Source: a bacterium
GTDB lineage: Bacteria > Fidelibacterota > Fidelibacteria > Fidelibacterales > Fidelibacteraceae
NCBI GenBank assembly: GCA_963676395.1
Contig: OY781066.1
Location: 1,408,001-1,472,000 of the forward strand
Direction: 5' to 3'
Length of the DNA: 64,000 nucleotides
Below the pieces are notes generated by a model. The model was not told the DNA's origin. It made no database searches and saw only the letters and a program-made list of their open reading frames with translations. Shown piece by piece: positions 24,789-37,280 of the stretch (position 1 is its first letter; every line of letters begins with the position of its first letter). A program made the position numbers and the translations under genes.

Positions 24789-24830
24789 AACCGGCATAAA
24801 TGATATGATAGCATTTGCGCCGGTTTTTTT
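24789..24830 (+). terminator. Probable terminator after skp
   Basis: AACCGGC...GCCGGTT followed by a T run. Confidence 0.6.
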
Positions 24831-24843
24831 ATTTGTGCTAAAT

Positions 24844-25479
24844 ATGAAGAAAATCCTTTTAATAATTATATGTATAATGCTCTCAATACCGCTGCTTTTC
24901 GCAGATGATAGTGAAAATGCCAATAAAATTATAAAGGGTTTTATTTATAAATATCCTGCCATTCCTCATCTATACAATAGTATTCATCCTTCGCTTAGTC
25001 TTGGGAAAGGTCGCGATTTGCTTCCTATGTTTGCAGGGAATATTACTCTCGGTGGTCCATATTTTTTGGAAGTTTGTGTTGGAGCGGGAGAAAGCAGTGA
25101 GGTAAGTGCTGCGTTAACCCAATATTCTTTTGGCTTGGGTATTTATGAAGCACTAAAGAATAGGGAAGACCATTATTATTCACTTTCACTTTCTTTAAGG
25201 AATGTGCAAAGCGCATTCCTGCGTACATCCTCTTTGGTAATGGAAGCACTTGTTGAACAAAAAGTTAACAATATTTATGTTGGAGTTGGACTTGATCTCA
25301 TTTCACAAGACTATACAATACTGGAAGGTTCACGATTTTCCGCCGGAAGTGATCGTATTTATCATGTAGGACTTATTGCTTATGCAAGAGCCGGAATATT
25401 GGGTTTGCGCATTTCGGGGGTACCCGAAGAATTTAACATTAATTTTTCTGTGGCTTTAAATATGGAGAAGACACAATGA
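24844..25479 (+). CDS. Exported hypothetical protein, possible small beta-barrel
   Basis: Signal peptide MKKILLIIICIMLSIPLLFA, alternating beta-strand pattern; stop overlaps the dxr start. Confidence 0.65.
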   Translation: MKKILLIIICIMLSIPLLFADDSENANKIIKGFIYKYPAIPHLYNSIHPSLSLGKGRDLLPMFAGNITLGGPYFLEVCVGAGESSEVSAALTQYSFGLGIYEALKNREDHYYSLSLSLRNVQSAFLRTSSLVMEALVEQKVNNIYVGVGLDLISQDYTILEGSRFSAGSDRIYHVGLIAYARAGILGLRISGVPEEFNINFSVALNMEKTQ

Positions 25480-26591
25480 AGTCCATCGCATTGCTTGGCT
25501 CTACCGGTTCGATTGGGAAGAATTCTCTTCAGGTGATATCTGAACATCCGGAAGAATTTTCTTTAAGTTTAATTACCGCAAATACTCAAGTTGATCTTCT
25601 AATTGAACAGGCTATTCGATACAAACCCAAAGCCGTTTGTATTGTGGACTCTCAGTATTATTCTCATCTCAAGAATGCTTTAAGATCTCTGGATATTGAT
25701 TGTTATGCAGGAGAGGAAGCCTTATTGGATCTGGTTAGAGAAGGTGAATACGATGTGCTTTTAAATGCTATTGTAGGTGCTGCCGGATTAAGGTCAACAA
25801 TAGAAGCTGTAAAGCTTGGCAAGGATGTTGCTTTGAGCAATAAAGAAAGTCTTGTCATGGCGGGTGAGCTGATTACATCTATTTGTAACAAGAGCGGAGC
25901 AAAATTATTTCCGGTAGATAGTGAACATTCCGCAATGTGGCAATGTTTGGCGGGCGAAAATGATAAAGATGTTGAAAAATTAATCTTAACGGGATCTGGC
26001 GGTCCATTTTTAAATCGCGATATAAGCAGTTTTAAGGATATTACGGTAGACGAAGCCTTAAAACATCCTAATTGGTCAATGGGAAAAAAGATCACGATTG
26101 ATTCTGCCACCATGTTCAATAAAGGTTTGGAGCTGATAGAAGCGGTTCATCTTTTTCAATTAGATGAATCAAAAATCGATATTTTAATACATCCCGGTTC
26201 AATTGTTCATTCCTTAGTCCAGTTTGTCGATGGTTCTGTAAAAGCTCAGTTGGGTGTGCCTGACATGAAAGTACCCATAATGTATGCTTTGGCATATCCT
26301 CGTCATTTAGAAAGTAATTGGCCAAGATTGGATCTTGCGGAACTTGGGACCTTGCAATTCCTGAAACCTGATTATGAAAAATTTCCTTCTTTAAGTATGG
26401 CAAGAAACGCCCTGCGTCAAGGCGGTACTTATCCGGCTGTATTGAATATGACAAACGAAAAAGCGGTCGCAGATTTTATTGCAGGAAAGATATCCTTCAC
26501 CGGAATATTCGATAGGGTAGAAAAAGCTCTTGAAGAACATAGAAGCTTGGATCCATTAAATGTGGATGATCTGCTGTCATTGATGGTTTAA
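25476..26591 (+). CDS. dxr: 1-deoxy-D-xylulose-5-phosphate reductoisomerase
   Basis: LGSTGSIG, NKES, PVDSEH, HPNWSMGKKITIDSAT, PDMK. Confidence 0.97.
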   Translation: MKSIALLGSTGSIGKNSLQVISEHPEEFSLSLITANTQVDLLIEQAIRYKPKAVCIVDSQYYSHLKNALRSLDIDCYAGEEALLDLVREGEYDVLLNAIVGAAGLRSTIEAVKLGKDVALSNKESLVMAGELITSICNKSGAKLFPVDSEHSAMWQCLAGENDKDVEKLILTGSGGPFLNRDISSFKDITVDEALKHPNWSMGKKITIDSATMFNKGLELIEAVHLFQLDESKIDILIHPGSIVHSLVQFVDGSVKAQLGVPDMKVPIMYALAYPRHLESNWPRLDLAELGTLQFLKPDYEKFPSLSMARNALRQGGTYPAVLNMTNEKAVADFIAGKISFTGIFDRVEKALEEHRSLDPLNVDDLLSLMV

Positions 26592-26843
26592 TATATTAAT
26601 TAATTTTTGTGAGATCTATGGGAGACAGGTATGCCTGTTCCATATGTTATTAGATGATAATTATTAAACAAAACTCTCATATTGATGAGATACTTCGAAG
26701 AAAAATACAGCCTGACGACATAAATCATTGCTTATAGGTGGTGAAAAGACATTTTTAAGCTTTAGTTAATTTTCTCTTAAAAATCATTTTAATTTTTATC
26801 AGTTTACTTTATATTAAAATCGAATAAAACTAATAGGGATAAT

Positions 26844-27536
26844 ATGAATGAGTTAATTGCAGTCGTCGATGACGAAAAAAGTATTTTAGAGTTAACGAGC
26901 ATACATTTGAAAAAATCAGGATTTAAGGTTGCTACGTTTCTAAACGGCGCCGATTATCTCGATTTTATTAGAACGACCACACCGGATTTAACCATTTTAG
27001 ATCTTACTTTACCGGATGCGGATGGAATGGAAATATGTAAAGTATTAAGGCGAGAAGAAAAATTTGATAATATGTCAATTATTATTCTTTCCGGTCGTGT
27101 TGAAGAAACAGATACTGTTTTGGGCTTAGAACTTGGCGCTGACGATTATGTTAAAAAGCCGTTTTCTCCTAAAGAACTGGCTGCCCGAGTAAAAACAGTA
27201 CTTCGTAGAAAAGCATCAACCGTTACACCAAAGCAGTCTGAGAACAAGATTAACATTAATAATAAAGTTATCATTGATGTGGATAGATACGAAGTATATG
27301 TTGATGGGAAGTTGGCAAATCTTACTCCGACCGAATATCGCATTTTAAAAATGTTAGCTGAAAAGAACGGTAATGTTCTTAAACGTGAAGAAATTCTTTA
27401 TAACCTCTGGGGTAACGAAAAGATCGTTGTAGATCATACGGTAGATGTTCATATCAAACATTTACGTGAAAAATTGGGCCCCTATGCGGACATGGTAAAG
27501 AACGTTCGTGGAGTGGGTTATAAGTTGGGAATGTAA
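26844..27536 (+). CDS. OmpR/PhoB family response regulator
   Basis: VVDDE, ILDLTLP, GADDYVKKPF, LTPTEY, TVDVHIKHLREKL, VRGVGYK; precedes the phosphate cluster. Confidence 0.92.
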   Translation: MNELIAVVDDEKSILELTSIHLKKSGFKVATFLNGADYLDFIRTTTPDLTILDLTLPDADGMEICKVLRREEKFDNMSIIILSGRVEETDTVLGLELGADDYVKKPFSPKELAARVKTVLRRKASTVTPKQSENKININNKVIIDVDRYEVYVDGKLANLTPTEYRILKMLAEKNGNVLKREEILYNLWGNEKIVVDHTVDVHIKHLREKLGPYADMVKNVRGVGYKLGM

Positions 27537-27556
27537 GTACAAGAAAATCATAGATT

Positions 27557-27582
27557 AAGGCCGGGTTTACCCGGTCTTTTTT
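27557..27582 (+). terminator. Intrinsic terminator
   Basis: AAGGCCGGG-ttta-CCCGGTCTT followed by a T run. Confidence 0.85.
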
Positions 27583-27710
27583 GTTTAATAATAAAAATTA
27601 ATGAAATTGTAAACACAATAAAAACAACTGCTTAAGTTTATCTGTGTTAGGGAAATAAAAAATCATTAAATAAACTATTGCATTTTAAGAAATTTGGACT
27701 AAATTCTGTC

Positions 27711-27908
27711 AGTTTAAATATGGATTGGGTCAAGAAAAAGTGAAAACAGTGCAAGGCAGTGCTATGTCTAAAAAGCTAAAACAAGTGGGCAATCGAAAGC
27801 AATTCAATGGGCGATCGTCGAAAGCATCGTCGTTGATCTCGTTGTCGATTTCGACTCTATTTTGATTTATATATTTGCCGTCATGTGTTGACGGCTTTTT
27901 TATATGTG
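27711..27908 (+). promoter_or_regulatory. Candidate cis-regulatory leader/attenuator, copy A
   Basis: Leader with uORFs ending in GCCGTCA-tgtgt-TGACGGC-T6 (27877-27901), upstream of the TonB receptor; related to 28033 and 34955. Confidence 0.55.
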
Positions 27909-27942
27909 TTAAGAAAAACTGAAAACAAGGAGAGCAATAAAA

Positions 27943-30909
27943 ATGTGGCAGAAAGTTAAAACAGTCGTGGGGAAACTTGATCGAGGATCGTTGTTAGGAT
28001 CGGCCAAGATCAAATCGCTGTTTATTTTATTTGTCGTTATGTGTTTAACGACTTTTTTGTACGCGAACGAAAATATGGGCAAGCTTGGTGGTACGGTTGT
28101 CGATGCTAAAACCGGTGAAGCTCTCATCGGTGCAAATGTTATTCTTAAAGGTACCTCCTATGGAGCGGCGACCGATCTGGATGGAAACTACTATATATCC
28201 GGTGTCCCGATTGGTGTTTATAATTTGGTTGTATCATATGTTGGTTATGAATCACAAGAGATTACCAGTGTATCAGTGGTTGCCAGTAATCAAAACAAAG
28301 TGAATATCACTTTGGTATCATCGGTAATGAATTTAAATGAAGTGGTTGTCAGGGCACAGGTTAAAGGGAATTCGGATATTTATATTCTCGCAGAGCAGAA
28401 GAAATCAGATAAGATCCAGGATGGTGTATCAGCCGATCAGATGTCTCGTGCCGGTGACGGTAACGCTGCTGATGCTGTAAAACGGATCACAGGTGTTTCG
28501 GTCCAAGATGGTAAATATGTTTCAGTTCGTGGTTTAAGTGACCGTTATGTATCTACCGCTATGAACGGTGTTCCTGTTCCTTCACCTGAACCTGAAAAAA
28601 AATCAGTTCCGCTAGATCTTTTTACAACAGGCATTCTTGAAAGTATTACAGCTTATAAAACTTATACTCCCGACCTTCCCGGTGTTTTTGCAGGTGGCGC
28701 CTTAAATATTAAAACAAAAGCTTATCCCGATGAACGTATTATGAATGTGAAATTCGGTCTCAACGGAAAATCAACTTTTTTTGGTGCAAACTATATGTTG
28801 GGATCTACCGGTTCACTTGATCTCTTAGGTTTCGATGATGGAACACGTGATTTAGCCGATAATATACCGGAAGACAGAATGTTAAGCTTATTGGTTCCTC
28901 CTACAGGTGTATCATTTGATGACTGGAAAGTTCAACTTGGCGAAATGGGTAAGGGATTTAATACCGGATTTACTATTCAAAATGCTCGTATTGGGCAGCC
29001 TCTTTCATTGGGCTTGAATTACGGTAATCGCTACGTTGTTAATGAGGATCTTGAATATGGGTTTTACACCAATGTATCTTTTGGAAACAGCTATTCTTAT
29101 AAAGAAGAATTATACAGACGCTATTCTGTATCGGATGCAGGTATTGAAGCGCGCACCGACCTTGTAAATGATAAAAGCAAATATGCAACCAACTTGAGTG
29201 TTTCGGGTTCAACCGGTTTGAAATATCGTGGACAGCATAAACTAAAACTCTACGGTATCTATACTCATAATTCGGAACAATCTTTAACTTTTGGCCGAGG
29301 TGATACTCCTAATTTAGATGAAGATGGTGTGTTTATCAGAGAATACTTTGTAGAAAAAAGCATCTTGAACTTTACCCTTACCGGTGAGCATGCATTGAAC
29401 TCATATTATGAATCTCGCCTGGAATGGGCTGCCAATGTTGGATCATCATTTTTGAGTGAGCCTGATGTGAAGAGTCACAATTATCAGTATAATGAAACCA
29501 GTGATTCATATGAGATCGCTAGATCTTCGGCAAAAGCCGGTCAGCGTTATTATACCGATGGTTATGATCGCAATGCGAACATTGATGTAAACTATAAACT
29601 AAATATTGATGACTACTTTGCAGATCTGAATAAGTTTAAGGTCGGGTCCCGTCTTCAGTTTAAAGATCGAAATTTTGGTAAGCGCGATTTTTTTCATGAA
29701 TATTCCGATGGTGCATGGCCGGCAAGTATAGTTCGAGTAAATGGCGATGACTGGGGAGCGGTTTTTAATGATGAAAATTATGTGACCGATCCTGACGAAG
29801 AAGGTCTTATTCTTCAGGAAGCTACTGATATGGGCTCGCGTAATGCTTATCAGGCAACTGAAGCGATCGCAGCCGGTTATTTAATGGCTGACATCCCTTT
29901 GGGTTTTGGACGTTCTTACTTTATGAATCAGTTCCGTTTCATTGGCGGTCTTCGTTATGAATATTACTTTTTATATCTTGTGCCTCATAATCCCGTAACA
30001 CACGATTATTATTATACACCTTTGATCAATAATGGCTTGGATCCGGTTGTTGCCAATATTTCAGAGCATGAGATCCTGCCTTCATTGAACTTACAGTATT
30101 CTACATCGAATGATATGAAGCTAAGAATGTCATTTTCAAAAACAGCGGCTCGTCCCGAGTTTCGCGAAGTGGCTCCCTTTGAGTTTCAGCAGTTTTATGG
30201 TGGGTCTGCCATTGTCGGTTATCCATTTTTAAAAACAACAGATATTTATAATTACGATTTTCGCTACGAATGGCATTACGGTGCCGGTGAACTTTTTGCT
30301 ATTGGCGTGTTTTATAAAAACTTTATAAACCCTATCGAAGTTTCACAGATTGAAACGGCGGATGAATCCTACTTGACATATCAGAATGCTTTATGGGCAA
30401 ATACAGAAGGTGTCGAAGTTGACTATCGACAGTCTTTACCTTTCATAGATCCTCATAAAGGTAAATTAATGCTGATGATGAACGGTACTTTTTCATTATC
30501 ACAGGTTGAAGCCGATGATATGATCACATTATTTAATGGTGTAAAAATCGCAAATTCTTCAACAACACTTCAACGTCCTTTACAGGGACAATCGAATATT
30601 ATGGCCAACGCAACACTTTCTTACTCTGATATCAAGGGTTGGAATGCGGCATTGGTTTACAATACATTCAGCAAACGCTTGTCTGCACTTGGTTCGGGAT
30701 CTATACCTAACGAATACGAGCTTCCCTTCCATTCATTAAATTTCACGGTAAGTAAAAAAGTGAATAGTATGAAAATATCAGCTAAGGTCAACAACCTGTT
30801 GAATTCACCTGTCCGTTTTGGTATCTATGACGAAGACGGCACTTTCTATGCCTCAAGGGAATACACCCCCGGAATGGGCTACTCGGTTAGTATACAGTAT
30901 GTATTTTAA
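27943..30909 (+). CDS. TonB-dependent receptor with an N-terminal carboxypeptidase-regulatory-like domain
   Basis: TGEALIGANV, SYVGY, plug motif VRGLSDRY...NG, barrel strands, NNLLN, terminal YxF. Confidence 0.93.
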   Translation: MWQKVKTVVGKLDRGSLLGSAKIKSLFILFVVMCLTTFLYANENMGKLGGTVVDAKTGEALIGANVILKGTSYGAATDLDGNYYISGVPIGVYNLVVSYVGYESQEITSVSVVASNQNKVNITLVSSVMNLNEVVVRAQVKGNSDIYILAEQKKSDKIQDGVSADQMSRAGDGNAADAVKRITGVSVQDGKYVSVRGLSDRYVSTAMNGVPVPSPEPEKKSVPLDLFTTGILESITAYKTYTPDLPGVFAGGALNIKTKAYPDERIMNVKFGLNGKSTFFGANYMLGSTGSLDLLGFDDGTRDLADNIPEDRMLSLLVPPTGVSFDDWKVQLGEMGKGFNTGFTIQNARIGQPLSLGLNYGNRYVVNEDLEYGFYTNVSFGNSYSYKEELYRRYSVSDAGIEARTDLVNDKSKYATNLSVSGSTGLKYRGQHKLKLYGIYTHNSEQSLTFGRGDTPNLDEDGVFIREYFVEKSILNFTLTGEHALNSYYESRLEWAANVGSSFLSEPDVKSHNYQYNETSDSYEIARSSAKAGQRYYTDGYDRNANIDVNYKLNIDDYFADLNKFKVGSRLQFKDRNFGKRDFFHEYSDGAWPASIVRVNGDDWGAVFNDENYVTDPDEEGLILQEATDMGSRNAYQATEAIAAGYLMADIPLGFGRSYFMNQFRFIGGLRYEYYFLYLVPHNPVTHDYYYTPLINNGLDPVVANISEHEILPSLNLQYSTSNDMKLRMSFSKTAARPEFREVAPFEFQQFYGGSAIVGYPFLKTTDIYNYDFRYEWHYGAGELFAIGVFYKNFINPIEVSQIETADESYLTYQNALWANTEGVEVDYRQSLPFIDPHKGKLMLMMNGTFSLSQVEADDMITLFNGVKIANSSTTLQRPLQGQSNIMANATLSYSDIKGWNAALVYNTFSKRLSALGSGSIPNEYELPFHSLNFTVSKKVNSMKISAKVNNLLNSPVRFGIYDEDGTFYASREYTPGMGYSVSIQYVF

Positions 30910-30940
30910 TAAACTTAACTCAAAGCTTAAGGAGAGCGAA

Positions 30941-32272
30941 ATGAAAAAAACATACGCTGTAGTTCTAGTTGCATTGGCGGCACTACTTACATTAACAGGA
31001 TGTTTCAATCCTGTCGGCCCGATTGATCCCATTGTTGTTCCGGGTTATTCAATGGCCCTTTCGGGCAACATCACTGAAGATCTTCATATTACTATGGAAG
31101 ATACAGTGATTCTTGCCGGCCAAACGTTTGTTGATTCAGGCGTTACATTAACTATCGATGCCGGTGTTACAATTGACGCCCTTCCCGATGACGGTAAAGG
31201 TCTTGCACCTTGTCTGGTTATCAAAAAAGGTGCTACCATCATTGCTGATGGTACAGCAACGGCTCCTATCACTTTTACTTCATATCTTCCTGAAGACATG
31301 AAAGATCGCGGTTCATGGGGCGGTTTGATTATTCTTGGTAAAGCTCCTATCAACAAAGACGGTGGTTCTGCTTTCGTTGAAGGTATTGTTGGCGTTCCCT
31401 ACGGTGGAACAGATGCTGATGATAACTCAGGTATTCTTCGTTACGTTCGCGTTTGGTATGGTGGTCGTTCAATCGGTCAGGATAATGAGATCAATGGTAT
31501 TACATTGGCCGGTGTTGGTCGTGGTACTACAGTTGACCACTGTGAAGTTGCTTTCAACCTTGATGATGGTTTTGAAATGTTCGGTGGTACGGTAGATCTT
31601 AAATACTGTTCAGTCCTTTTTGTTGGTGATGATGCTTTTGATACGGATCTTGGCTACCAGGGTCGCGGTCAGTATCTTTTCGCTTTGATCGGTGAAGATG
31701 ATGGTAATCGTGGATTTGAAATGGATAACGATGGTTCATCAATGGATAAACAACCTCGTTCACTTCCTAAATTTTCAAACGTAACGCTGATTGGTTCAGG
31801 CGACACTTCAGCTGTTGCTAAAAATGATCAGGTTATCCGTCTTCGTGAAGGAAGCGGCGGTGATTTTCGCAACTTGATAATTGTAGACGGCAAAGAATAT
31901 GGCGTACGCGTAACGGACGATCCTACAAAGAATATCGTTGTTACTGCTGCTCCTGCTACAGGTACGGAAAACTACTTGTACTTCTCAGAGAACAACATCG
32001 TTTATAATTGTAAAACAGCCCAGTTCAAAGAAGACTACGGTTGGACAGCTCTTGACTTAGATGCCGGTGTTTATGCTGACGGTCGTGAAGATGCTGATTC
32101 GGCTTCAGTTAATGTTATTCCCACACCTTCAGGTGCTGCATTTCAGAATGTTGATGCAGTGATCGCTGATGACTTCTTTGAAGCGGCTACTTTTAAAGGT
32201 GCTTTTGGTTCAGTCAACTGGTTGGATGGTTGGTCATGGTTATCCGAAAACGATCGTTTGGTCGCTGAATAA
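30941..32272 (+). CDS. Surface lipoprotein with a predicted beta-helix (pectin lyase-like) fold
   Basis: AAGGAG RBS before ATG 30941, lipobox LTGC, WGGLIILG, DDNSG.LRYVR, EINGIT, DDGFEMFGG. Confidence 0.8.
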   Translation: MKKTYAVVLVALAALLTLTGCFNPVGPIDPIVVPGYSMALSGNITEDLHITMEDTVILAGQTFVDSGVTLTIDAGVTIDALPDDGKGLAPCLVIKKGATIIADGTATAPITFTSYLPEDMKDRGSWGGLIILGKAPINKDGGSAFVEGIVGVPYGGTDADDNSGILRYVRVWYGGRSIGQDNEINGITLAGVGRGTTVDHCEVAFNLDDGFEMFGGTVDLKYCSVLFVGDDAFDTDLGYQGRGQYLFALIGEDDGNRGFEMDNDGSSMDKQPRSLPKFSNVTLIGSGDTSAVAKNDQVIRLREGSGGDFRNLIIVDGKEYGVRVTDDPTKNIVVTAAPATGTENYLYFSENNIVYNCKTAQFKEDYGWTALDLDAGVYADGREDADSASVNVIPTPSGAAFQNVDAVIADDFFEAATFKGAFGSVNWLDGWSWLSENDRLVAE

Positions 32273-32302
32273 ATAATTAGACTGTCATAACAGTTTTTCT
32301 TG

Positions 32303-32334
32303 AAGAAGCGTTATTCCCACGGCGCTTCTTTTTT
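32303..32334 (+). terminator. Intrinsic terminator
   Basis: AAGAAGCGTT-attcccac-GGCGCTTCTT followed by a T run. Confidence 0.75.
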
Positions 32335-32405
32335 ATTCTATCAAAAAAACAGCTTTGTCAAATATAATCTAGATAGTATATTCTTTTTTATATTTGGGAA
32401 AAATA

Positions 32406-34685
32406 ATGTCAGTATATTTATTAATGGTCATAGTTCTTTTCTTTCTTGCGATTTCCGGATTGATCGTGGGTGTAACTAATGATGCAGTGAATTTCTTAAA
32501 TTCTGCTCGAGGGGCAAAAGCTGCAAAAAATTGGATTATTATGATCATTGCCAGTCTTGGCATATTGATCGGAACCACTTTTTCAAGCGGTATGATGGAG
32601 GTGGCAAGAAAGGGTATTTTTCACCCCGAAGAATTTTGCTTTTCTGAAGTAATGATCATATATCTTGCTGTAATGTTAACGAATGTTATTTTGCTGGATG
32701 TATACAATACTCTGGCATTACCTACATCAACAACCGTATCTGTGGTATTTTCTTTGTTGGGTGCGGCTTTGGCGGTTTCTTTGGTAAAGATCGGTCGTTC
32801 TGCCGATACAGGCTTGTCTCATCTTACTCATTATATTAATTCCGATAAAGCGTTATTGATCATGGCGGGCATCCTGCTCTCGGTGGTAATTGCGTTTACT
32901 GTGGGGACCATTGTACAATTTCTTACTCGCTTGTTGTTTACATTTAAATATGAAAAAGGCTTAGCACGATACGGGGCCATTTGGGGTGGTTTTTGTATAG
33001 CGATCATTACATATTTTATTTTGGTCAAAGGAGCTAAGGGCTCTTCATTTATGACCGCAGACGTTAAGCAGTGGATCACAGATAATACGTTGTTGATTTT
33101 AGGACTTTCGTTTATTGGTTGGACAATTATTATTCAACTGTTTAAGTGGCTGTTTAAAGTAAATATTCCAAGAATGATTATTTTGATCGGTACCTTTTCT
33201 TTGGCATTTGCATTTGCCGGTAATGATTTGGTTAATTTTATTGGTGTGCCTCTCGCCGGTTATAAAGCATTTCAAGCATTTTCTGCAGTTCCCGGGGCTG
33301 ACCCACACACCTTTTCAATGGGATTTATGTCCGGAGCCGTCAAAACAGAAACTTATCTGTTATTGATCGCAGGTGCTATTATGATCACGACGTTATGGGT
33401 TTCAAAAAAATCCCGCCATGTTAGTCAAACAGAGTTAAGTATTGCCAGACAAGGAATAGGTGAAGAACGTTTTGCTTCAACAGGAATCTCCCGGATTGTC
33501 GTACACTCTTTAGTTGTGATTAATGAATCTTTTAGGAAAATAACCCCCAATCGAATTCGAGAATTTGTTGGAAAACGATTTACCAGGCCCGAAGAGGTAT
33601 CCGGAAGCGAAGCTCAATCTTTTGATATGATCCGCGCGTCAATGAATCTTACTGTGGCCAGTTGTTTGATCGCACTCGGGACTTCTTTGGAACTGCCATT
33701 ATCTACAACCTATGTAACATTTATGGTTTCAATGGGTACGTCTTTGGCAGATAAGGCCTGGGGAAGAGAAAGTGCTGTATATCGTATGTCAGGCGTGTTT
33801 ACTGTTGTTGGCGGTTGGTTTTTAACGGCAATTATTGCTTTAATTGTTTCAATGCTTTTTGCATTACTTGTTAACTGGGGTGGTATTGTAGCTGCCATAT
33901 TGTTATTTGCTTTTGCTGTTTTTGTTTTGGTTAGAACTTTTTTGAGCCACAGAAAAAGTGAAAAAGAAAAAGAAGAAAAGATTCAAGAAGATGATGACAA
34001 TGATATCTTTAAAAAATGCAATGCACATACGGTTAAAATATTAAAGATCATTCCCGACATTCTTGAAAAGAGTATAAAATCCTGTTATAAAGAAGATCGC
34101 AAACATATTAAGGAATTACACGAAAAGACAAAAGAATTATTATTAGATACAAAAAACAGAAAGAATTGTTTTACCCTTCAATTGCGTAATATAGAAGATG
34201 AATCTCTGGAATTTGGACACTTTTATCTTCAAATGTTACATTACATCCGTGAGTTTTCACACAGTTTGAATTATATTGTAGATGCCAGTTACGAGCATAT
34301 TTACAACAATCATCGTGGGCTTAATAAAGAACAATATGAAGAGTTAGAGGTCCTGTGTGACAGTTTGGAAGATATTTTCAAAGATATTAGAAAAGCGGTT
34401 GAGCAACAAGATTTTGATAAAAAGACAAAGATCAAGCATCGCCAGGAGAAACTGCTGGACAAGATTAGTGATTTTCAAAGTAATCAGGTTAAGCGCATTA
34501 AACATGGAAAAACCAATACCCGTAATTCTATTTTATATATGACAGTTATCTTTGGCATTAGAGATCTATTGATCCATGTTGTGCGTCTATTGAAAGTTCA
34601 AAGTAAGTTTGTTCCGTCTCATACTTTACAAGATAAATACGATGATAAATCGATTGATGCTCAAATCAATCTTAACTTAGAATAA
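32406..34685 (+). CDS. PiT (PHO4) family inorganic phosphate transporter with a C-terminal PhoU-like helical domain
   Basis: GVTNDAVN, LPTSTT, AGNDLVN, LPLSTTY signature repeats and a soluble helical tail. Confidence 0.88.
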   Translation: MSVYLLMVIVLFFLAISGLIVGVTNDAVNFLNSARGAKAAKNWIIMIIASLGILIGTTFSSGMMEVARKGIFHPEEFCFSEVMIIYLAVMLTNVILLDVYNTLALPTSTTVSVVFSLLGAALAVSLVKIGRSADTGLSHLTHYINSDKALLIMAGILLSVVIAFTVGTIVQFLTRLLFTFKYEKGLARYGAIWGGFCIAIITYFILVKGAKGSSFMTADVKQWITDNTLLILGLSFIGWTIIIQLFKWLFKVNIPRMIILIGTFSLAFAFAGNDLVNFIGVPLAGYKAFQAFSAVPGADPHTFSMGFMSGAVKTETYLLLIAGAIMITTLWVSKKSRHVSQTELSIARQGIGEERFASTGISRIVVHSLVVINESFRKITPNRIREFVGKRFTRPEEVSGSEAQSFDMIRASMNLTVASCLIALGTSLELPLSTTYVTFMVSMGTSLADKAWGRESAVYRMSGVFTVVGGWFLTAIIALIVSMLFALLVNWGGIVAAILLFAFAVFVLVRTFLSHRKSEKEKEEKIQEDDDNDIFKKCNAHTVKILKIIPDILEKSIKSCYKEDRKHIKELHEKTKELLLDTKNRKNCFTLQLRNIEDESLEFGHFYLQMLHYIREFSHSLNYIVDASYEHIYNNHRGLNKEQYEELEVLCDSLEDIFKDIRKAVEQQDFDKKTKIKHRQEKLLDKISDFQSNQVKRIKHGKTNTRNSILYMTVIFGIRDLLIHVVRLLKVQSKFVPSHTLQDKYDDKSIDAQINLNLE

Positions 34686-34793
34686 TATTTCGCTTAAATT
34701 TAATTTAATTAACAGGTTAGCTTAAAGAAATATTTAAATAAAATTATTTGATATTTTTTATTGTTATCAACAATTTCCTTATTATATTCATTT

Positions 34794-34986
34794 AGTTTAA
34801 TCATGGTTTTTACTATAAAAAGTAAAAGAAAATTTACCTAAATCACATTTGAAAGTACCATGGATCGAAGCTTAGAAAACATACAACAGAGTTGGGAGAA
34901 ACAGAGCTCATCAACCACATCGTTATTGATGTTAAACTGTTGTAATTATTATTTGCCGTTACATGTTAACGGCATTTTTATTTGTG
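34794..34986 (+). promoter_or_regulatory. Candidate cis-regulatory leader/attenuator, copy C
   Basis: CATCGTTATTGAT followed by TGCCGTTA-catgt-TAACGGCA-T5 (34954-34979); matches copy A. Confidence 0.55.
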
Positions 34987-35054
34987 AAAGAAATACTGCT
35001 GTGTAGCTGAGACGAGCTTTATTATATTCAATAACATATAGGAGTGTACAAATA

Positions 35055-37280
35055 ATGTCAATCTATCTCGTTATGGTGATCGTGTTGTTCTTTCTTGCCG
35101 CAACTGATCTAATTGTGGGTGTTACGAATGATGCTGTAAATTTCTTGAATTCCGCACGTGGAGCAAGGGCGGCGAAGAATTGGGTGATTATGTTGATTGC
35201 CTCAATCGGTGTATTTATTGGTGCGACCTTCTCTTCCGGAATGATGGAAGTTGCAAGAAAGGGAATTTTTCATCCTCAGGAATTCATGTTTTCGGAGATC
35301 ATGATTATTTATTTAGCGGTAATGTTAACGGATGTTATTCTTTTAGACGCATATAATTCACTGGCTTTACCAACGTCAACCACAGTTTCAATCGTTTTTG
35401 AATTGTTGGGTTCCGCTGTGGCCATTTCCTTACTGAAGATTGGTCGCAATCCAATGGAAACACTTTCTGATTTACCAAAATACATTAACTCGGATAGAGC
35501 TTTATTGATCATATCGGGTATTTTGCTCTCGGTAATTATTGCATTTTCGGTTGGTGCTATTGTTCAATTTTTAACAAGATTGCTATTTACATTTAAATAT
35601 CAAAAGAATCTTGATCGCTTTGGCGCTATTTGGGGTGGATTGTGTATTGCGATCATTACTTTTTTTATTTTGATCAAAGGTGCTAATGGTTCATCATTTA
35701 TGACAGCCGATCTTAAGGCATGGATCAGTGCAAATACATGGTTGATCTTAGGCGCCTCATTTATAGGTTGGACGATCATTATTCAGTTGGCAAAATGGTT
35801 ATTTAAAGTAAATGTACCAAGAATGGTAATTCTTTTCGGTACCTTTGCTTTAGCTTTTGCTTTTGCCGGAAACGATTTGGTGAACTTTATTGGTGTTCCT
35901 TTAGCCGGGTTTAAATCTTTTCAGCTGTTCCAAGCTTCCGGTGCTAGTGATCCTTCGACTTTCTCTATGGTAGCGTTATCGGGAAAAGTCCAGACCGAAA
36001 CATATATGCTGTTGATCGCCGGAGCCATTATGGTTATTACCTTATGGACGTCCAAAAAATCCCGCCACGTTTCTAAAACAGAATTGAATATTGCCAGTAA
36101 AGATGCTACGGATGAACGTTTTGGTTCTACCGGTTTTTCTCGTTCAGTTGTTAGGATGGCTGTAAGTTTTAATCAAGGTATGCGCAAGATTTTTCCCTCA
36201 GCAATGCGCAATAAAGTTAACGAACGTTTTTCTCGTCCGGTTATGAATTCCGAAGCTGAAGCCCAATCTTTTGATATGATACGTGCTTCAATGAATCTAA
36301 CCGTTGCATCGTCTTTGATCGCACTTGGCACCTCATTGGGATTGCCCTTGTCAACTACTTATGTGACTTTCATGGTTTCAATGGGCACCAGTTTGGCCGA
36401 TAGAGCCTGGGGTCGTGAATCTGCGGTTTACCGTATTACCGGTGTGTTTACCGTGATCGGTGGTTGGTTCTTGACGGCGATCATTGCTTTTACTGTTTCT
36501 TTGATCTTTGCTACGCTTCTTGATCTAGGCGGTATTTTCTCGGTGTTGGGTTTGTCGGTATTGGCGATTTTCTTGATCGTGCGCACACTTCTGACTTTTA
36601 GAAAAAAAGAAGTTGCACGCGAAGAAGCACAGAATGAAGAAGAAGGTAATGACATTATGGAGATCTGTAATGCTTACACCAAGAAAATCCTAACGACTAT
36701 TCCTCAGATTTATAGTGATATGATCGAGGCGCTTCATAAAGAAGATCGCAAGACATTGCGTGAGTTAAGAAAGCAAACGGCAGAGCTCTTGGAAAAAACC
36801 AAGAATCGCAAAAATCATTTTACGGTTCGTTTGCGTGATATTGAAGAAGATTCATTGCAGTATGGACATTTTTATTTACAGATGCTTCACTATATACGTG
36901 AATTCGCTCGTTCAATTGATGATATGGTTTCAGCTTGTTCGGTACATATTGAGAATACACACTGCGGTACGAACAATGCTCAGCAAGCTGAATTGATAAA
37001 GCTTTCAGAAGAAATTGAAACAATATATTCAGCGATATCTCGTATGGTAGAGGAACAGAATTTTAATGAAAAAGAGAACATTAAAGCTGAACATGAAGAG
37101 CTTCTGGATATTATTGTTGAATATCAGAAAAATGAAGTTCGACGTGTGAAAAATGAGCAATCACAGACAAGGAACTCGGTTCTTTTTATGTCGGTATTGT
37201 CCGGATCTAAAGATTTAACTGTTGATGTGATCCGTCTTTTGAAAGTTCAAAGTAAATTTACACCGGACCTATCGGACTAG
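35055..37280 (+). CDS. PiT (PHO4) family phosphate transporter with PhoU-like tail, second paralog
   Basis: Colinear paralog of 32406..34685 with the same signature motifs. Confidence 0.88.
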   Translation: MSIYLVMVIVLFFLAATDLIVGVTNDAVNFLNSARGARAAKNWVIMLIASIGVFIGATFSSGMMEVARKGIFHPQEFMFSEIMIIYLAVMLTDVILLDAYNSLALPTSTTVSIVFELLGSAVAISLLKIGRNPMETLSDLPKYINSDRALLIISGILLSVIIAFSVGAIVQFLTRLLFTFKYQKNLDRFGAIWGGLCIAIITFFILIKGANGSSFMTADLKAWISANTWLILGASFIGWTIIIQLAKWLFKVNVPRMVILFGTFALAFAFAGNDLVNFIGVPLAGFKSFQLFQASGASDPSTFSMVALSGKVQTETYMLLIAGAIMVITLWTSKKSRHVSKTELNIASKDATDERFGSTGFSRSVVRMAVSFNQGMRKIFPSAMRNKVNERFSRPVMNSEAEAQSFDMIRASMNLTVASSLIALGTSLGLPLSTTYVTFMVSMGTSLADRAWGRESAVYRITGVFTVIGGWFLTAIIAFTVSLIFATLLDLGGIFSVLGLSVLAIFLIVRTLLTFRKKEVAREEAQNEEEGNDIMEICNAYTKKILTTIPQIYSDMIEALHKEDRKTLRELRKQTAELLEKTKNRKNHFTVRLRDIEEDSLQYGHFYLQMLHYIREFARSIDDMVSACSVHIENTHCGTNNAQQAELIKLSEEIETIYSAISRMVEEQNFNEKENIKAEHEELLDIIVEYQKNEVRRVKNEQSQTRNSVLFMSVLSGSKDLTVDVIRLLKVQSKFTPDLSD

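Follow-up and report, generated by a model that had tools for sequence, protein, structure and literature searches.

A candidate pair of tandem terminator-attenuators at a TonB-dependent receptor gene in the Fidelibacteraceae

A stretch of 64,000 nucleotides (nt) from a bacterium of the Fidelibacteraceae (GenBank assembly GCA_963676395.1, contig OY781066.1), called the window here, carries a gene cluster in which all genes lie on the forward strand. A PhoB-like response regulator gene is followed by genes for a TonB-dependent receptor, a lipoprotein, two PiT phosphate transporters and an H+-pyrophosphatase. Three related hairpins interrupt this cluster, with hairpin A before the receptor's start codon, hairpin B inside the receptor gene and hairpin C between the two PiT genes. 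A first-pass annotation had taken them for copies of a single, termination-based regulatory RNA linked to phosphate supply. Here A and B are read as tandem intrinsic terminators that act as attenuators, with read-through needing a closely following ribosome, and the probability of this reading is put at about 0.5. The attenuation would be of the leader-peptide kind, restricted to one genus and to one gene.

The locus and its hairpins

The three hairpins lie where they had been annotated, with TATTT ahead of each and a T run behind it (Table 1), and stem pairs 2 and 6 do switch from C-G to T-A together. Counted with its basal pair, hairpin C has 8 pairs (34954-34961/34967-34974). The joint hairpin pattern finds 3 matches in the window compared to 0 in 100 shuffles, and over the whole genome of 2,335,625 bases it finds only A, B and C, with a reversed control giving 0. 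With three copies in 2.34 Mb, all in one cluster, the hairpins are not a dispersed repeat of the kind of repetitive extragenic palindromes or miniature inverted-repeat transposable elements, and the suspicion that they belong to no named family is supported by an Rfam scan of positions 26000-36500 at E<=10, which gave only chance-level matches to small nucleolar RNAs and bacterial small RNAs, far under the gathering scores and none with E below 0.2. An intrinsic (Rho-independent) terminator is defined here by a G+C-rich stem of 5-14 pairs, a short loop and a U tract on the sense strand directly after it. All three hairpins have these features and are listed by a terminator scan, and their predicted stabilities (A -12.5, B -8.4 and C about -10 kcal/mol) are near those of gene-end terminators close by (-14.8 and -13.3 kcal/mol).

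The first proposal of three equivalent leader copies fails on position. Hairpin A lies in the 5' leader, 47 nt upstream of the receptor start codon. Hairpin B is inside the receptor reading frame, 90 nt in, where codons 31-37 contribute to the hydrophobic core of its signal peptide, and the T run is read as Phe-Leu just ahead of the cleavage site. Hairpin C sits in the 369-nt gap between the PiT genes, upstream of the second PiT gene's own promoter, and is found in this genome only. The receptor start at 27943, with its AAGGAG, is kept in all orthologs. A later ATG, at 28085, was rejected as the start codon, given that it is not conserved and that the protein would have no export signal.

Table 1. 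Features at the receptor locus. Positions are those of the window, except in the first row, where they are those of the contig.
Feature	Position	Strand	Details and basis
Source stretch	1,408,001-1,472,000		single-contig genome, 2.34 Mb (2,335,625 bases), 38% G+C
OmpR/PhoB-type response regulator gene	26844..27536	+	Pfam Response_reg and Trans_reg_C
Response regulator's own terminator	27557-27578	+	terminator scan
Promoter-like site of leader A	27678..27706	+	TTGCAT, 16 nt, TAAATTC; ATTG and TAWATTC columns kept in 13 of 13 loci
Leader A, putative transcript of about 190 nt	27711..27901	+	conserved AGTTTAAA to end of U tract; alignments
Leader upstream reading frame, 33 codons and TGA	27764..27865	+	AAGG at 27753-27756, 7 nt before ATG
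Hairpin A	27877-27895 (stem 27877-27883/27889-27895)	+	GCCGTCA/TGACGGC, loop of 5; TTTTTT to 27901
Receptor Shine-Dalgarno sequence AAGGAG	27927-27932	+	ATG and Shine-Dalgarno sequence kept in 13 loci
TonB-dependent receptor gene	27943..30909	+	Pfam CarbopepD_reg_2, CarboxypepD_reg, Plug; NCBIfam TonB-Xanth-Caul
Hairpin B	28033-28052 (stem 28033-28039/28046-28052)	+	GTCGTTA/TAACGAC, loop of 6; TTTTTT to 28058
Lipoprotein gene, 3' of receptor gene	30941..32272	+	lipobox LTGC; from translation
Terminator after lipoprotein gene	32302-32331	+	terminator scan
First PiT gene's promoter	32355-32382	+	TTGTCA, 16 nt, TATATT
First PiT (PHO4) transporter gene	32394..34685	+	Pfam
Promoter-like site of unit C	34761..34789	+	TTGTTA, 16 nt, TATATTC; promoter scan; same build as promoter A
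Unit C, apparent diverged paralog of leader A	34794..34979	+	global alignment
Hairpin C	34955-34973	+	GCCGTTA/TAACGGC, loop of 5; then TTTTT to 34979
Second PiT gene's promoter	35000..35028	+	weakened -35 TGTGTA (35000-35005), 17 nt, TATATT
Second PiT (PHO4) transporter gene	35055..37280	+	Pfam

Among the genes of the cluster, the response regulator has PhoB as its top NCBIfam model, at 208 bits and under the cut-off of 296. The signal peptide of the receptor has an unusually long basic first part. The lipoprotein is without a match in Pfam or NCBIfam, and the nearest clusters in the ESM Atlas bear Beta_helix_4 (score 0.98), so that it is predicted to be beta-helix-like and to be the receptor's co-transcribed partner. 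Its conserved C-terminal motif, FKGAFG..NWL.GWSWLDE, is seen again ahead of PiT promoters in other genomes of the genus. The PiT proteins are long, at 763 and 741 residues, with the best PHO4 match spanning only about residues 25-333, so that much of each protein has no best match reported. Elsewhere in the window, a 224-residue frame (24805-25479) between an OmpH-like gene and dxr has no Pfam match. The gene upstream of the receptor unit is the regulator in this genome and a PiT gene in genomes G006 and G016.

Conservation of the hairpins in one genus

The genomes used for comparison are related metagenome-assembled genomes, many of them incomplete. Of the 21 other genomes of the genus, 12 have a receptor ortholog (66-76% protein identity). 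Each of these 12 carries two hairpins of the same sequence, the first ahead of the start codon by 55-69 nt and the other past it by 78-93 nt. The linkage within the genus is strict, in that the 13 genomes with the receptor are the 13 with A and B, and the 9 genomes that lack the receptor have neither. Hairpins A and B are 137-159 base pairs (bp) apart in these 13 loci. A metagenome contig, L180, adds a fourteenth locus with both hairpins (receptor identity 78%). In two assemblies, at G005:C2 and G021:C1, in-frame TGA stops or frame changes break up the receptor ortholog, and A and B are still kept (affected loci L018, L019, L026, L028 and L031); these are either pseudogenes or assembly errors.

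A strict form of the pattern gives 25 matches in 13 of the 22 genus genomes, all of them at the receptor gene except C, and none in the reversed control. The enrichment at pit, pst and phoU genes that had been proposed as a check is not seen in these 22 genomes, where the motif stands at one receptor gene only and PiT genes elsewhere have plain promoters. A covariance model, as had been suggested, was built from 27 hairpins and run on 33 genomes of the family; at E<=0.1 it returned the same 27 sites only, and no match in the 11 family genomes outside the genus. In 279 further genomes of the phylum (301 in all), 3 chance-level matches in 2 genomes stand against 9 control matches. A scan of 185,579 species genomes gave 65 loci, among which the 8 paired matches, 146-155 nt apart, all come from this lineage. 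The lineage matches (8 pairs and 3 singles) are in metagenome-assembled genomes labelled Neomarinimicrobiota, Marinimicrobia or Fidelibacterota; the 3 singles agree in their contig coordinates with known genus loci, and the other 54 single matches are in unrelated taxa.

Outside the genus, receptor orthologs of 44-57% identity (6 genome and 4 metagenome loci) have short, ordinary signal peptides and neither leader A nor hairpin B, and they lack the run-up of 78-93 nt, or 26-31 codons, that separates the receptor start from B within the genus. A separate motif, YGTGAYA(A)nCGR, lies in the 5' untranslated region of 6 of these 10 orthologs, 15-25 nt before the start codon (L014, L022, L015, L182, L183 and L250). 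In several of them it falls within the loop of a stem in which a CCCUC-like stretch is paired to the Shine-Dalgarno sequence GAGGG. The 3' arm of hairpin A is similar to the 3' half of this motif, GATAACGG. The gene family thus seems to have a further, different control, predicted to act at the level of translation.

The pairing of the hairpins was tested over 29 copies. In the alignment, 94.4% of cells pair and 4 of 8 pairs are altered on both sides: pair 6 is CG in 18 and UA in 11 copies, pair 1 goes once from GC to AU, pair 2 once from CG to UA, and the basal pair is UA in 12, AU in 4 and CG in 1. Two cells are U-G. The pairing and covariation score was reached by 0 of 500 shuffles, and registers slid against each other pair at 19-54%. 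The set of 27 hairpins, without the L180 pair, behaves in the same test likewise as conserved RNA stems. In this genome, G006 and G016, A and B differ at pair 6, and within each hairpin both arms change together. Hairpin A has a loop of 4 or 5 nt and hairpin B one of 6 nt, and the four T after the stem are invariant (29/29). Predicted energies run from -9.1 to -13.3 kcal/mol for A (n=14) and from -8.4 to -13.5 kcal/mol for B (n=14), the weakest B being that of this genome (-8.4) and every other A or B falling between -9.1 and -13.5 kcal/mol. The interpretation of A, B and C as conserved RNA terminator stems is supported by these comparisons.

Given that B is read as protein, its conservation was compared to that of the surrounding codons. 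Over the first 300 receptor codons of 13 orthologs there are 54 four-fold degenerate columns with an invariant residue, and the third base is kept in 0 of the 54. The four-fold codons in stem B, GCC and ACG, have an identical third base in 13 of 13, and a Val codon (GTY) covaries with a Leu codon (TTR). By this comparison of orthologs, stem B is shown to be under selection at silent sites, beyond selection on the protein. Terminator-like motifs, here a perfect 7-pair stem with at least 3 G-C pairs, its loop having 3-8 nt and the 7 bases that follow holding 6 T or more, number 289 genome-wide; 7 of them, in 6 places, lie within same-strand frames of at least 150 codons, B among them, and all 7 are no more than 90 nt from the earliest start that the frame allows, a zone in which starts are called with uncertainty. 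When at least 4 G-C pairs are asked for, 1 of 242 falls in the masked interior of long same-strand frames. Judged by these counts, such motifs are selected against within the genes of this genome, and it is for this reason that a conserved in-gene hairpin is notable.

Hairpins A and B share a block of 44 nt around the hairpin (78% mean column identity over all 29) and the same layout. The first-pass annotation had also described two blocks further upstream, ATCGTYRTTR and AAAACA...TGGG. That likeness holds up in this genome, where A and B resemble each other outside the hairpin (z 4.2, reached by 1 of 300 shuffles), whereas it is not significant in 10 of the 12 other genomes. It is plausible that A is a tandem duplicate of the receptor gene's own 5' end. 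Each copy keeps its own marks across species, namely the loop length and the sequence after the U tract (TATATCT in A, TATGC in B), and for this reason both are judged to be old and not homogenised.

Unit C probably arose by a later duplication of A and has since diverged. It aligns to the A copies of its own clade with scores of 35-44, compared to 9.7 +/- 3.2 and a maximum of 21 for shuffles, and is more diverged than the A orthologs are among themselves. About 30 regions upstream of PiT genes in other genomes of the genus hold no homolog of it. A frame of 48 codons (34860-35006) passes through hairpin C, which is the sole site listed by the terminator scan after the first PiT gene. Unit C may either feed read-through into the second PiT gene or just end the first PiT transcript. 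All PiT genes of the genus have a promoter block that consists of AAAAAACTGCTTTGTC, about 17 nt and TAWATTC, about 25 nt before the start codon (32340-32382 and 34990-35028 in the window, L034-L062 elsewhere in the genus). This block is a candidate region for binding by the PhoB-like regulator encoded nearby. Promoter A shares a similar A tract and TTG box with it.

The leader frame and the attenuator reading

Leader A is preceded by a putative sigma-70-like promoter that scores 8 of 12 against the Escherichia coli consensus; the scan threshold was 9, so that the site is unlisted, and promoters are assigned here by conservation only. The common start that had been described, AGTTTAA(A/T)YATGG after a -10-like TAWATTC, is present both at A (27700-27723) and at C (34783-34806). 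The first 100 nt of the leader are rich in A (0.39-0.49, compared to 0.31 in the genome). In 13 of 13 leaders there is an ATG frame of 31-46 codons whose stop codon falls between -14 and +12 nt from the first base of hairpin A, and shuffled leaders have such a frame in 3-9% of trials each. The frame of L180 has 41 codons and stops at +12. Counting this locus, 9 of 14 have the stop codon within the loop or 3' arm, whereas it precedes the stem by 4-6 nt in 3 of 14 and by 13-14 nt in 2 of 14. A CAAGG lies 8-9 nt 5' of the ATG in 10 of 13, where the early part of the frame is aligned the larger gaps span 3, 6 or 9 columns, and in the close clade the third codon position varies most, if weakly (0.43 vs 0.37 and 0.31).

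The predicted leader peptide has a conserved basic centre, RKK-RRR, that parallels the long basic first part of the receptor signal peptide, and then a Ser/Leu-rich end. Relative to the stem, the reading frame of this tail differs among loci, and in 5 of the 14 the tail is truncated. The peptides are rich in Arg (13.6% vs 4.0% in the proteome), Lys, Ser and Cys, and rare codons are favoured, with CGG making up 21 of 65 Arg codons (4.7% genome-wide) and TCG 31 of 53 Ser codons (10.6% genome-wide). In this genome the leader frame has seven TCG in 33 codons, compared to 6.9 per thousand genome-wide, and is rich in CGA too. The ATCGTYRTTR blocks mentioned above are part of this TCG run. The T fraction of the 25 nt before the stems is 0.24-0.68, compared to 0.31 in the genome, and is raised in most copies.

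Several other devices were looked for in the leader. When 13 leaders were folded without the 3' arm, the partners of the 5' arm were non-homologous or absent, so that no common antiterminator was found, and RNAalifold on the 13 leaders gave the terminator as the sole consensus structure, with almost no invariant columns in the middle of the leader. Regulatory codons of the trp or his type were not found, in that the operon has no known link to the enriched Arg, Lys and Ser. Stuttering sensitive to uridine triphosphate (UTP) at the start of AGTTTAAA was rejected, given a T run of just 1-4 nt across species. Pairing of the 3' arm of A with the 5' arm of B was also rejected: it would include two G-U pairs here, but in L012 and L009 the difference between A and B is the opposite one and an A-C mismatch would result. 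Between hairpin A and the receptor start codon no promoter-like site was seen, by eye, in the sequence and the 13-locus alignment. The conserved TATAT after stem A was considered as a promoter and, again by eye, has no acceptable -35 at 16-20 nt.

Because no promoter-like site was seen downstream of A, the receptor operon appears to be reachable solely by read-through of A and then B. The proposed sequence of events is as follows. Transcription would start at the sigma-70-like promoter and produce a leader of about 190 nt, in which a small frame with its own Shine-Dalgarno sequence would be translated up to, or just short of, hairpin A. Only polymerases that pass A would reach the receptor start codon, and about 90 nt into the gene they would meet the near-identical hairpin B, such that A and B together would gate one operon of TonB receptor and beta-helix lipoprotein. 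A ribosome close behind the polymerase would cover the 5' arm, block the stem and allow read-through, and a lagging ribosome would leave the terminator free to act. The ribosome would be delivered by the leader frame at A and by the receptor's own frame at B. In short, this would be kinetic coupling of the pyrBI type, with no trp-type switch between two folds. The signal could be translation capacity, the supply of transfer RNAs for rare codons, or the speed of the polymerase, set by nucleoside triphosphate supply, relative to the ribosome. Termination by the hairpins and its relief by a ribosome are both inferred from the sequence comparison.

The first-pass annotation had left control open to a ligand, a protein or a ribosome. 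Among these the ribosome is favoured, because the conserved upstream frame ends at hairpin A, and the conserved core that a ligand pocket might form is not seen. As to the proposed tie to phosphate, the receptor and a PiT gene are one gene apart on the same contig in 9 of 9 judgeable genomes (the other 4 are on short contigs). PiT genes elsewhere in the genus have no hairpins. What would connect the attenuator to phosphate is thus gene order only. Taken further, the signal-peptide code of the receptor would double as a terminator and, with a decoy copy of the gene's 5' end, form a two-step kinetic gate at a phosphate-scavenging locus that weighs nucleotide, and hence phosphorus, supply against translation capacity without a dedicated sensor RNA or protein. 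This extension is speculative and is offered at far lower confidence than the attenuator itself.

A number of observations weigh against ribosome-relieved attenuation. The 13 genomes are kin, so that the counts overstate independence, and just 3 of the 13 show a significant likeness of A and B beyond the hairpin (this genome and two others, with z 4.4 and 2.9), which leaves the duplication origin weakly supported. As the main weakness, the leader frame ends 14 nt before the stem in this genome and 13 nt before it in G012. The usual footprint of a terminating ribosome is too short to cover a stem 13-14 nt past the stop; because such a ribosome would merely abut the stem, it is doubtful that A is occluded directly at 2 of the 14 loci, this genome included. 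No regulatory-codon logic links the leader frame to phosphate, and the excess of Arg, Lys and Ser and of CGG and TCG codons may just reflect CG-rich local stems. In some species, such as L180, the tail of the leader peptide resembles a membrane span, which fits a small-protein gene, and the U-rich stretch ahead of the hairpins is not universal, given the spread of T fractions. Lastly, 5 of 7 core stem pairs are identical in nearly all copies, and this identity of sequence could point to a sequence-specific factor.

Such a factor, an RNA-binding protein or a small RNA that recognises the GCCGUYA...URACGGC stem, could relieve the terminators at A and B in place of the ribosome, with the upstream frame incidental or tuning RNA stability. 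In its favour, the sequence of the stem is kept and not its pairing alone, pairs 1-4 being GC in 28/29, CG in 28/29, CG in 29/29 and GC in 29/29 while silent sites are saturated. Stem A is read in differing frames, so that coding cannot account for its sequence, and C retains the same stem. Yet the locus has no constant neighbour that is a candidate RNA-binding gene, conservation does not extend to the loop, and hairpin A of L180 has both basal pairs changed and carries a U-G. The frozen GC clamp is explicable by selection for stability with few mutational paths at 38% G+C, and a factor would leave the conserved frame that ends at the stem unexplained. This alternative is considered unlikely.

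About equally improbable is the proposal that A and C are stand-alone small genes, for a small basic membrane peptide or a small RNA, and that B is a relic of common ancestry kept for messenger RNA stability or a translation pause. Units A and C each have a promoter, a Shine-Dalgarno sequence, a frame and a terminator, C is upstream of a PiT2 promoter that looks intact, and the peptide ends in 19-20 mostly hydrophobic residues in L180, L005 and L021. The tail of the peptide is nevertheless not conserved, given its frame shifts relative to the stem and the shortened frames, is not membrane-like in the L026/L010 and L019/L011 lineages, and codon positions differ only weakly. The lack of a promoter-like site, by eye, between A and the receptor start means that the receptor is read through A, and the frozen silent sites and U tract of B would need a separate reason.

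The hairpins were also considered as a pair of palindromic DNA operators about 150 bp apart, bound by a dimeric regulator, perhaps the PhoB-like neighbour, that loops the DNA. Looping between paired operators is known at the gal operators, the half-site sequence is conserved here at the spacing of A and B in 13 loci, and CCGTCAT appears similar to the E. coli Pho-box half-site CTGTCAT. However, the gap between half-sites, which a palindromic operator would keep fixed, varies: in A it is 4 or 5 nt depending on the species, in B it is 6 nt, U-G pairs would be mismatches in DNA, and half-sites differ within a genome (CGTCA in A, CGTTA in B) yet co-change within a hairpin. The T run is strand-specific and invariant in 29/29, and the targets of PhoB-family proteins are direct repeats. 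The variable spacing, the G-U pairs and the strand-specific U tract argue for RNA and against a DNA operator, which is given very little weight.

A riboswitch for phosphate, pyrophosphate or another small molecule, with the terminator as its expression platform, is similarly improbable. A long leader that ends in a terminator near phosphate transporters would suit it, as would local stems seen by eye in several species between the start codon and the terminator. The Rfam scan down to E=10, the RNAalifold consensus of a terminator only, the mid-leader with its near absence of invariant columns and the lack of a conserved antiterminator argue against it, as does the fact that this middle stretch is an open reading frame and that B is within coding sequence. 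The idea that the hairpins have no regulatory role and are leftovers of local duplication, C being merely the 3' terminator of the first PiT gene, fits the divergence of C, its presence in this genome only and its place as the sole terminator-like site there, but is hardly credible for A and B, which keep their diagnostic loop length and 3' flank over 14 loci while silent sites are saturated. A neutral terminator inside a gene would also be harmful, and the genes of this genome almost lack such motifs.

Comparison with known systems

If tandem attenuation is correct, the locus would be a natural case of transcription-translation coupling as a regulatory input beyond model bacteria. A conserved in-gene terminator with silent sites frozen across a whole genus is unusual, and an attenuator may perhaps arise by tandem duplication of a gene's own 5' end, an idea with weak support here. 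The lineage is uncultured, such that any handle on the control of its nutrient uptake is new. In the parts of the literature that were available, neither a terminator in signal-peptide code nor a phosphate locus with a leader-peptide attenuator is described.

The closest parallel is the pyrBI operon of E. coli, where transcription is coupled to translation of a leader peptide in a UTP-sensitive manner and a ribosome near the polymerase blocks the terminator stem. Much as in pyrBI, a leader frame of some 30-45 codons reaches or enters an intrinsic terminator at most loci, the proposed mechanism would do without an antiterminator fold, and a U-rich tract precedes the hairpin in most copies. Unlike pyrBI, which serves pyrimidine synthesis, the operon here encodes a receptor and a lipoprotein near phosphate transporters, a second terminator lies within the signal-peptide code of the structural gene, and at 5 of 14 loci the leader frame ends short of the stem. 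UTP sensing belongs to pyrBI and would be conjectural here.

The classical leader-peptide attenuators of trp, his, leu, thr and pheA also have a short leader frame with its own ribosome-binding site, followed by a terminator ahead of the structural gene. They differ in that no run of codons for a cognate amino acid and no mutually exclusive antiterminator was found in the leaders here, and in that their stop codon lies well before the terminator rather than at it. The secretion-monitor leader peptides SecM, MifM and VemP carry an arrest motif that acts on translation of a downstream Sec or YidC gene. The peptide upstream of the receptor resembles them in looking like an export signal, with a basic start and then a hydrophobic stretch. 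However, the downstream genes here are not export factors, the read-out would be a terminator, and no arrest motif is known.

Ribosome-mediated attenuation via translation of a leader frame has been described for bmrB-bmrCD of Bacillus subtilis (PMC4191407). As far as the portion of that report available goes, it too concerns a transporter, non-biosynthetic operon in which leader translation is coupled to termination, in another phylum and with another sequence. In Mycobacterium tuberculosis, conditional termination has been tied to translated upstream frames (bioRxiv 10.1101/2022.06.01.494293). The title of that work stresses Rho, unlike the canonical hairpin-and-U terminators at one locus here; judged from the part available, the two cases are alike in that premature termination in translated regions would serve as a regulatory layer.

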